From Clostridia bacterium (GTDB taxonomy: Bacteria > Bacillota > Clostridia > Oscillospirales > CAG-272), in contig JAFSYU010000033.1 of NCBI GenBank assembly GCA_017443595.1, forward strand, positions 201,414 to 265,413: a stretch of DNA of 64,000 nucleotides. The letters are read 5' to 3'. A program made the position numbers and the translations under genes. Of this stretch, positions 15,340-15,605 are shown piece after piece. Positions within the stretch are counted from its first letter, which is position 1. Each line of letters opens with the position of its first letter. The notes under the pieces are model-generated. The model was not told the origin of the DNA and ran no database searches. It worked only from the letters and a program-made list of their open reading frames with translations.

Positions 15340-15530
15340 TGGTGACCCGTGGGGGAATCGTTCTTGATTTTTGCAAGGCAATTTGTGCATACTTGTTCGT
15401 GCATGCCTTGCAAAAATCTGCGGTCACCGCTAAAAACAGTCCACCGGACTGTTTTCTTAACGCTGCGTTCGATTCCCCCATATATAGCTGTTCATAATAC
15501 AAAAGACGCCGTATGGCGTCTTTTGTATTA
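15340..15530. repeat. tRNA-linked hairpin-rich element, copy B (trailing tRNA-Glu)
   Basis: - A 21-bp direct repeat of the tRNA-Glu 3' end: 15340-15360 equals 15531-15551.
- A 10-bp terminal inverted repeat: gggggaatcg 15351-15360 / cgattccccc 15470-15479.
- Hairpins at 15366-15418 and 15433-15455.
- A terminator hairpin at 15497-15528. Confidence 0.85.
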
Positions 15531-15605
15531 TGGTGACCCGTGGGGGAATCGAACCCCCGTTTCCAGCGTGAGAGGCTAGCGTCTTGGCCGCTTGACCAAC
15601 GGGCC
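15531..15605 (-). tRNA. tRNA-Glu (anticodon CUC), CCA encoded
   Basis: Hand-folded cloverleaf of 75 nt. Acceptor GGCCCGT/ACGGGTC, anticodon stem CTAGC/GCTGG with loop CTCTCAC, T-arm GGGGG-TTCGATT-CCCCC, discriminator A plus CCA. The 5' half matches the typical Firmicutes tRNA-Glu pattern GGCCCGTTGGTCAAGCGG. Confidence 0.9.

Follow-up and report, generated by a model that had tools for sequence, protein, structure and literature searches.

A family of small, structured, tRNA-anchored cassettes in rumen and gut Clostridia

The tRNA-Glu(CTC) gene in a 64,000-nt stretch of the Clostridia bacterium contig JAFSYU010000033.1 (positions 201,414 to 265,413; the whole stretch is called the window below) is trailed by a ~190-bp, hairpin-rich unit without a credible open reading frame (ORF). 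This unit belongs to an unannotated and widespread family of tRNA-anchored cassettes. Sequence comparison directly supports the family itself, its linkage to tRNA genes, arms specific for the adjoining tRNA, a common structure with covariation, tandem arrays with a polarity, and variation in copy number between strains. We propose that the unit and its relatives are non-coding, non-autonomous insertion cassettes of ~170-190 bp that target the T-loops of tRNA genes, a reading to which we assign a probability of roughly 0.55.

The tRNA-Glu unit and its relatives

The intact tRNA-Glu gene, with its CCA encoded, occupies 15531-15605 of the minus strand (ARAGORN; Rfam tRNA, 60.9 bits) behind a promoter-like TTGATT-17-TATACT (15646-15618), and its last ~21 nt are the tRNA-proximal copy (b, minus strand) of a repeated 3' end. 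Adjoining this end is T1 (15493-15532), an 18-bp bidirectional terminator hairpin whose arms, 15493-15510 and 15515-15532, are complementary at 18/18 positions; it is counted as part of the cassette because it is homologous, with compensatory changes, to the T1 of a second unit behind tRNA-Val. A spacer reading TATATAGCTGTT on the plus strand (15481-15492; family consensus cATGAAGt-like) separates T1 from the inverted copy (inv) GTTCGATTCCCCCA (15467-15480, plus strand), which equals tRNA-Glu positions 53-66, that is the T-loop, the 3' strand of the T-stem and position 66, and forms the 3' arm of a stem termed P1. The 10-bp hairpin H2 (15433-15455) is preceded by an A-tract and followed by a T-tract, the form of a bidirectional terminator, and then by the conserved TTCTTAACGCTGC. 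Next comes the conserved linker CTGCGGTCACCGCT (15419-15432, plus strand), in which invariant alignment columns and the predicted fold indicate a mini-hairpin, CGG-TCA-CCG. The 15-bp hairpin H1 (GATTTTTGCAAGGCA / TGCCTTGCAAAAATC; 15366-15418) has fully (100%) complementary arms at 15366-15380 and 15404-15418 around a variable 23-nt loop. The left junction TTCTT (15361-15365, plus strand) comes from a family motif TTCTTG, whose G is the first base of H1, and begins right where tRNA identity stops in the T-loop. The distal, displaced copy b_left of tRNA-Glu 56-76 (15340-15360, minus strand) follows, its inner 10-11 nt forming the 5' arm of P1, and T3, a 14-bp bidirectional terminator (15308-15339; arms 15308-15321 and 15326-15339), adjoins this displaced tRNA end.

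The 21-nt direct copy at 15340-15360 matches 15531-15551 exactly (24 nt at 96%), at a spacing of 191 bp. This 21-mer occurs twice in the window and the inverted 14-mer GTTCGATTCCCCCA three times, against 0.00 and 0.02 occurrences expected from shuffles. A 14/15 match to an H1 arm at 45326-45340, inside an ORF encoding a DUF218 protein (44304-45515), was judged to be due to chance because it has no partner arm.

All elements that a preliminary description had listed for this locus are present, at or within 1-2 nt of where it had placed them. It had also treated the ~190 bp as wholly unique, which does not hold, since 104 nt comprising H2, the inverted copy and T1 (15429-15532) have a 99% identical twin 517 bp away. 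This twin is a truncated outer copy of the cassette (14912-15015, plus strand), with H2 at 14912-14941, an inverted tRNA-Glu copy at 14950-14963 and T1 at 14976-15015; it lies directly behind an ORF (13703-14902), and no tRNA follows it. Neither this duplicate, nor the tRNA-Val unit, nor the Gut-1 RNA treated below had been mentioned.

The second complete cassette (9061-9247, plus strand; 147.5 bits with the covariance model introduced below) stands behind tRNA-Val(CAC) (9246-9319, minus strand), 6 kb from the tRNA-Glu unit, and according to ARAGORN both tRNA genes of the window are thus trailed by a cassette. Its parts are b_left (9061-9073, tRNA-Val 57-69), TTCTTG (9074-9079), H1 (9079-9131), H2 (9146-9168), the inverted copy (9179-9192, tRNA-Val 53-66) and T1 (9205-9247). 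The two units share the TTCTTG junction, H1, the linker, H2, the TTCTTAACGCT motif, the spacer and T1, and their alignment reveals compensatory differences in H2 and T1. Both patches of the tRNA-Val unit are copied from tRNA-Val and not from tRNA-Glu. In each case the tRNA's 3' end is directly repeated and the tRNA itself is intact (21/21 nt for tRNA-Glu, 13/13 nt for tRNA-Val).

The family extends well beyond the window. Scanning genome contigs with the H1 pattern gave 44 loci, several per genome, nearly all from metagenome-assembled genomes (MAGs) of rumen or gut Clostridia, Christensenellaceae or 'Ruminococcus', and a linker-pattern scan of metagenomes added 52 further loci, human-gut contigs included. 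An nhmmer profile of the core recovered 84 unique full-length cores; of these, 47 have a tRNA 3' end no more than 110 nt away, and 14 others stand farther out in arrays. A covariance model that includes P1 (R1) found 78 full-length matches at E <= 1e-13 in ~65 fetched loci from rumen/gut Clostridia MAGs and metagenomes, the two window copies scoring 147.5 and 140.9 bits. Cassettes stand behind 14 isoacceptors (Ser-GGA, Ser-GCT, Arg-ACG, Met, Glu-CTC, Ala-CGC, Ala-GGC, Leu-GAG, Leu-CAA, Trp, Val-CAC, Val-GAC, Gly-CCC and Gln-CTG), and the patches match the adjoining tRNA in nearly every copy. The preliminary description had set beforehand three outcomes that would speak against a mobile or functional element, namely a core occurring nowhere else, a core occurring away from tRNAs without matching termini, and a one-off local duplication with neither presence/absence polymorphism nor transcript; none of them was found.

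This family seems to have escaped annotation. Rfam 15 reports nothing significant on 15340-15530 even at E <= 10, the only families in the region being tRNA and Gut-1, and these two are also the only ones found at gathering score in 19 related loci. The H1 and linker patterns had 0 matches in IMG/VR viral contigs, and blastn of the unit against INPHARED phages and PLSDB plasmids gave no match. Searching the literature for tRNA-linked miniature integrative elements, folded attP sites in tRNAs and partial-tRNA arrays, we found no published description of the family. In short-read assemblies of this species, contigs end time and again at the cassette or its 104-nt duplicate (L046, L101-L103, L105, L107), and the family is therefore probably under-represented in MAGs.

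Structure and covariation of the cassette

From its outer end towards the tRNA, the unit is ordered as displaced tRNA 3' end, ~105-nt core (H1, mini-hairpin, H2), inverted copy, spacer, T1 and intact tRNA. Aligning the patches of 47 tRNA-adjacent copies to their tRNAs shows that the inverted copy corresponds to tRNA positions 54-66/67 (sometimes 53-68) and ends sharply, giving way to the cATGAAGt-like motif. The distal direct copy starts at tRNA position 56-58 and reaches position 72 or beyond in most copies; where its identity breaks off early, the breakpoint lies at position 64 or outward, with 0 breakpoints inside the part that pairs in P1. In most copies, 116-120 nt separate the inverted from the direct copy (130 nt in the Gln and 166 nt in the Met subfamily), a constancy not expected of random deletion remnants.

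The two patches pair with each other as P1 and close a three-way junction. P1 is a 10-11-bp duplex identical to positions 56-66 of the tRNA gene, located exactly where tRNA identity ends. Folded as single-stranded DNA, 15340-15481 has a predicted energy of -43 to -44 kcal/mol (z = -9.4 for the plus and -8.5 for the minus strand), and either strand is predicted to adopt the same three-way junction of P1, built from the tRNA-derived patches, H1, the mini-hairpin and H2.

Covariation across the family agrees with this fold. In an alignment of 76 distinct sequences, which was fitted to the model structure and hence leans towards it, standard pairs make up 96.8% of the cells, a share that falls to 80.5% in shuffles and to 52% or less once the partners are slid; per-sequence analyses that are independent of the model alignment agree with its pairing. 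Changes on both sides affect 23 of the 37 pairs (10/10 in P1, 5/14 in H1 and 8/10 in H2). The helices are almost purely Watson-Crick on both strands, with 6 G.T and 12 A.C cells among the ~1,800 of H1 and H2. The wobble cells counted, 49 G.T and 32 A.C, fall mostly at one position and reveal no clear strand bias. Wobble pairs being nearly absent, pairing is evidently kept on both strands at once, which suggests a structure at the DNA level or a function of both strands rather than an RNA made from one of them. Bidirectional terminators enclose the unit on both sides, and a scan detected no promoter. No 'empty palindromes', in which the two arms would enclose no core, turned up in a search for them.

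Some copies deviate from this plan. A structured insertion of ~135 nt stands between H1 and the CGGTCACCG linker (…CCGAAGAAATC…GATTTCTTTCG…) in five loci (L008 4863-5008, L023, L030, L093 and L027), suggesting nested or modular additions. Met-type cassettes (L006, L016, L018) contain an inserted motif GGGG(T/A)(T/C)CCCCGAAACGAG…CGAGTTTTGGGG before the inverted copy, and a close variant of this motif occurs beside AATGAAG-spaced hairpin arrays beyond the displaced end (L012, L028).

Arrays, arm exchange and cargo

At least 12 loci contain tandem arrays; arrays comprise two to four units, each preceded by a copy of the tRNA 3' end. The tRNA-proximal unit outscores the next one out in 10 of 12 arrays, with one tie and one exception. 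The tRNA-Glu locus fits this polarity, with a complete unit at the tRNA and a truncated unit with Gut-1 cargo outside it. Copy number also varies between near-identical strains at two loci. Around tRNA-Val, contig L045 and the window share 99.98% identity over 8.2 kb, yet L045 contains an extra 189-bp unit, so that one unit is found in the window and in L100 and two in L045; the same tandem junction is present in the separately assembled L102. The tRNA-Gln locus, whose flanks are 99.1% identical in L091 and L074, has two units in the former and one in the latter. The presence/absence comparison that the preliminary description had called for thus yields one-versus-two differences at both loci and no empty site.

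Cores 94-96% identical carry wholly different arm pairs (L084 and L011, L054 and L031, L062 and L058), and in three copies (L055, L080, L094) the left arm is copied from a non-adjacent tRNA; these chimeric arms probably reflect recombination between dispersed copies, i.e. chromosomal rearrangements. Between L061 and L049 the element is 98% identical and the sequence upstream of the tRNA 81%.

Three unrelated core types (L026, L025/L037 and L065) share the T-loop breakpoint and the duplication of the 3' end, which makes the T-loop a general point of insertion in these genomes. The unrelated small insertions lie at 2343-2444 of L026, at 6620-6730 of L025 and in the first ~180 nt after tRNA-Gln in L065; an inverted T-arm copy of its own (positions 54-71) is present in the L026 type and absent from the L065 type. 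The tRNA-Gln behind the two-copy array of L091 (3440-3560) is itself interrupted in the anticodon-loop region by unrelated sequence, presumably another integrated element.

Between the two cassette copies of the tRNA-Glu locus lies a block (15054-15339) made of a convergent Gut-1 pair with a promoter-like site before it and T3 after it. Gut-1 RNA (RF01706), which to our knowledge is known only from gut metagenomes, was identified at 15234-15308 of the minus strand (72.1 bits, gathering score 50) as three hairpins separated by GUGAAAU. An inverted Gut-1-like unit convergent with it occupies 15126-15215 of the plus strand and scores under the Rfam threshold (40.5 bits, E 2.4e-6). A sigma-70-like promoter, TTAACT-18-TATAAT (15054-15083, plus strand), which is a consensus match only, could drive the pair towards T3. 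We read the Gut-1 pair as part of the cargo of the older, outer cassette.

The H2 of this truncated outer copy begins 10 nt past the stop codon of ORF 13703-14902 and appears to double as the terminator of that gene. The ORF encodes 399 aa without a Pfam match, and a repeat with a 9-nt period (14040-14165) encodes a Pro-Thr linker; in contig L107 the gene is broken into shorter ORFs.

Hairpins resembling T3 follow the displaced tRNA end in L010, L053, L083, L027 and L009/L014 as well, and in all of these except L010 the T3-like terminator was noted behind tRNA-Arg, tRNA-Trp or another tRNA. In L053, L027, L009 and L014, two arrays of small GC-rich hairpins, opposed to each other, come next. 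Their hairpins are separated by a 7-8-nt motif, which resembles UGAAAU in L053 and L027 but CAUCAUU in L009 and L014; the L083 contig ends after the first hairpin of the region. These opposed arrays look like a broader Gut-1-like class carried as cargo; none reaches the Rfam threshold in the loci scanned.

Insertion cassette, tRNA trailer or scar

In the proposed explanation, a cassette would start inside the T-loop with its own copy of tRNA positions ~57-76, and by bringing its own tRNA 3' end it would leave the tRNA intact. Read in the direction of the tRNA, it would continue with T1, a 13-14-nt inverted copy of tRNA 54-66, H2 and H1, ending in CAAGAA, and the former tRNA 3' end would be pushed outward to become the distal direct repeat. 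New cassettes would enter at the tRNA and shift older ones outward, giving rise to arrays, some members of which may carry cargo such as the Gut-1 RNA pair. The inverted copy would pair with the displaced tRNA-end copy, or with that of the cassette itself, and the resulting P1 would recreate, in a folded single strand, the T-arm duplex of the tRNA gene at the foot of a three-way junction with H1 and H2. The folded DNA may then be the recombination site, read by an enzyme encoded elsewhere. The analogy of integron attC, of CTX attP(+) and of the IS200/IS605 guide suggests that the inverted copy would act as an internal guide or a mimic of the target. We infer, and only infer, the movement by site-specific recombination, the folded-DNA substrate and the supply of the enzyme in trans; the folded strand is the candidate substrate because P1 covaries with the tRNA, is spared from truncation, and belongs to helices that are Watson-Crick only.

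A more specific version, which we regard as rather doubtful though with a real chance of being right, would make the cassettes an integron-like platform on tRNA genes, in which a trans enzyme uses the inverted copy as a 10-13-nt internal guide pairing with the target strand. Such a target-mimic or guide principle is not known to have been described for tRNA integration. Folded-DNA cassettes, some with non-coding RNA genes such as Gut-1, would thereby be inserted into the T-loop. Guide pairing would make the target specificity rewritable between tRNAs, which would explain near-identical cores with different arm pairs.

Several known systems share parts of this architecture. Integron attC sites are imperfect palindromes of ~60-140 nt that are conserved in structure and not in sequence and are recombined as a folded single strand. 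Like the cassettes, integrons stack small units in arrays at a fixed anchor, where new units enter as is proposed for the cassettes; unlike them, they use attI and not a tRNA T-loop, whereas the cassettes have no adjacent intI, mostly no ORF, and a closing stem copied from the target gene. The attP(+) of CTX phage and of integrative mobile elements exploiting Xer (IMEX), which rely on XerCD, contains inverted target-like copies ~100 nt apart that fold in single-stranded form into a mimic of the chromosomal site. Two inverted target-like copies forming a duplex mimic of the target in one strand are thus common to both, but the target there is dif and not a tRNA, CTX is a full phage genome, and the host Xer enzymes are known.

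IS200/IS605 elements and their palindrome-associated transposable elements (PATEs), non-coding derivatives with subterminal hairpins, recognise their site by internal guide pairing beside a hairpin, and this specificity can be reset. The cassettes resemble them in subterminal hairpins, in the proposed guide pairing and in the lack of classical terminal inverted repeats. However, the guide comprises 4-5 nt there and would comprise 10-11 bp in the cassettes, and IS200/IS605 insertion, which occurs 3' of a 4-5-nt target, neither duplicates the target nor rebuilds a gene. The left and right hairpins of IS200/IS605 resemble each other, unlike H1, H2 and T1. An IS200/IS605-derived PATE was accordingly rejected, H1, H2 and T1 being unrelated in sequence and the 3'-end duplication being present. 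A miniature inverted-repeat transposable element, which would have terminal inverted repeats at both ends and a short target-site duplication of fixed length, was rejected as well: of the two inverted arms, both of them copies of the target, one flanks a terminus and the other is internal, ~60 nt short of the right end, and the direct repeat varies from 9 to 21 nt.

The plus strand of the tRNA-Glu unit, TGG followed by the complement of the tRNA 3' end over 21 nt, also recalls the primer-binding site (PBS) of retroviruses and long-terminal-repeat retrotransposons. In contrast to a PBS, the cassette copy reproduces the gene exactly, flank context included, and has no CCA if the gene has none; it is often just 9-15 nt long, and no reverse transcriptase accompanies it. 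An origin from mature tRNA by reverse transcription was rejected because copies are without CCA where the gene is (tRNA-Val, tRNA-Ala). Retron, bridge-RNA/IS110 and casposon-like origins were discarded in view of the missing reverse transcriptase, the misfit of repeat length and arm geometry, and a duplication length that is not fixed.

A number of observations weigh against mobility. As the preliminary description had noted of the surroundings, no recombinase is at hand: Pfam detected no recombinase, transposase or reverse-transcriptase family among the ORFs of 180 aa or more in the 64-kb window. The window is housekeeping chromosome, with the dnaK operon, alaS, prfB, ABC transporters and rhamnosidases, and the unit neighbours genes for a SpoVB/MurJ-like flippase, a rotamase, an MscS channel and a lipase, with no intI/attI adjoining. 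Pfam searches of ORFs between array members (L033, 429 aa; L027, 151 aa; L011, 157 aa) revealed no recombinase either. The predicted empty tRNA-Glu junction, in which T3 would join the intact tRNA, had 0 matches in the metagenome collection; autonomous relatives, free circles and empty orthologous sites were likewise not found, and viral, phage and plasmid collections contained no copies. Unit and upstream flank have diverged to a similar degree at most orthologous loci (unit and flank values of 0.78 / 0.79 for the window and L008, and 0.83 / 0.90 for L010 and L053), which fits long vertical residence. One-versus-two copy changes and tandem arrays can arise by unequal exchange between direct repeats, and gene conversion, i.e. 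concerted evolution of the cores, could mimic arm swapping. Retargeting to a new tRNA needs a coordinated change of two patches, for which no route is demonstrated. The folded-DNA step rests on analogy and on the Watson-Crick-only pattern.

Three large serine recombinase genes, picked up among neighbouring ORFs by eye and then by motif searches, do lie near cassettes in related contigs (L095 1240-2838, L085 212-1798 and L018 2098-3726). In L095 and L085 just 6-7 nt of the tRNA-Gln 3' end precede the element with the recombinase, which stands directly behind the T1 of a cassette. The three genes belong to separate elements inserted at or near position 70/71 of tRNA-Gln and not in the T-loop.

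The main and serious rival is a host-functional tRNA trailer, which we consider somewhat unlikely. P1-H1-H2 would then be an ancient, vertically inherited cis element behind singleton tRNA genes, acting as DNA or as read-through RNA, for example in termination, insulation or the control of 3' processing, with arms that must match the tRNA; gene conversion would homogenise the cores within genomes, and unequal crossing-over would generate the arrays. The occupation of both window tRNAs, the divergence in step with the flanks, the very constant length and the three bidirectional terminators within the cassette are all consistent with such a trailer, as are compensatory changes that keep the structure and the preservation of the P1-forming but not the outer part of the distal copy. 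However, we can name no function that needs a duplex identical to a tRNA T-arm, and a close though non-syntenic relative (L068) has an unoccupied tRNA-Glu(CTC) with a plain terminator only. Decayed and truncated copies, chimeric arms and mixed arrays of unrelated cores at the same breakpoint resemble the debris of mobile DNA. The better preservation of the proximal copy in 10/12 arrays and the L061/L049 pair, with an element more conserved (98%) than its flanks (81%), also argue against a trailer.

The units might instead be ordinary att-flanked scars akin to cis-mobilizable elements (CIMEs), left by internal deletion of a conventional integrase element or prophage in the tRNA; we give this little credence. 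Cassettes and the tRNA-integrating elements, CIMEs and tycheposon arrays have in common a direct repeat of the tRNA 3' end, a rebuilt tRNA and a T-loop breakpoint; Williams is said to have placed the T-loop in 2002 among the classical integrase sublocations in tRNA genes. Tandem arrays with the newest copy at the tRNA are known from tRNA-integrating elements (PMC5704250; 10.1101/2020.12.28.424599), and 3'-end direct repeats with tandem accretion are hallmarks of tRNA-integrating and cis-mobilizable elements (PMC5704250; tycheposon preprint 10.1101/2020.12.28.424599). Large serine recombinase elements do use these tRNA ends in L095 and L085. The cassettes differ, however, in being ~190 bp instead of kilobases, in having no genes, in using one core for at least 14 tRNA species, and in an extra inverted T-arm copy that pairs with the repeat; they have the direct repeat of an integrase-type element but no integrase of their own and no known integrase-bearing parent. 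Like CIMEs they retain attL/attR and lack recombination and transfer genes, but their uniform size and the failure to find a parent do not support decay from a larger element such as the ICE or IME from which a CIME derives. Independent deletions would not be expected to yield a uniform 116-120-nt module, nor a covarying three-way junction behind 14 tRNAs, nor an inverted T-arm copy that always tracks the tRNA. Searches of genomes, viruses, phages and plasmids retrieved no parent element with this core. Simple att duplication, as the preliminary description had argued, fails to explain the inverted copy.

A small RNA gene is very improbable. It would encode a plus-strand antisense RNA, or a processed read-through RNA ending like the tRNA, that acts on the tRNA or its precursor. 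The plus strand indeed opens with a PBS-like complement of the last 21 nt of the tRNA and ends at the H2 terminator, the helices covary, and a possible TTGCAA-17-TAAAAA inside the conserved linker has promoter-like spacing, though it was not flagged by the promoter scan. Yet there is neither room nor signal for a promoter upstream of the antisense arm, because a terminator adjoins it; wobble pairs are nearly absent and without clear strand bias, no Rfam family matches, and in many copies the antisense arm measures just 9-13 nt. A one-off local segmental duplication or tRNA-templated rearrangement, to which the 104 bp shared at 99% with a segment 517 bp away could point, is refuted by recurrence of the architecture at tRNA-Val and in about 80 further copies in other genomes. 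Among the three origins that the preliminary description had left open, the miniature integrative element is thus favoured and the one-off rearrangement is ruled out, and the processed non-coding RNA is weakened because bidirectional terminators box in the unit, no promoter was detected and no strand-specific excess of wobble pairs is seen.

If the cassettes are mobile, they would be the smallest site-specific integrative elements known to us, at ~190 bp and without genes, that rebuild an essential tRNA, and would exemplify an attachment site presented as a structured mimic of the target gene. They would also point to a recombinase in uncultured rumen/gut Clostridia that reads tRNA T-arms through DNA or RNA structure and that could be worth considering as a programmable tool for insertion. 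The family gives the orphan Gut-1 RNA a first genomic context, as cargo in tRNA-linked arrays, and accounts for assembly breaks behind tRNA genes in these organisms. Even if the cassettes were trailers, a covarying three-way junction that copies the T-arm behind 14 tRNA species would constitute an unexplained cis element.

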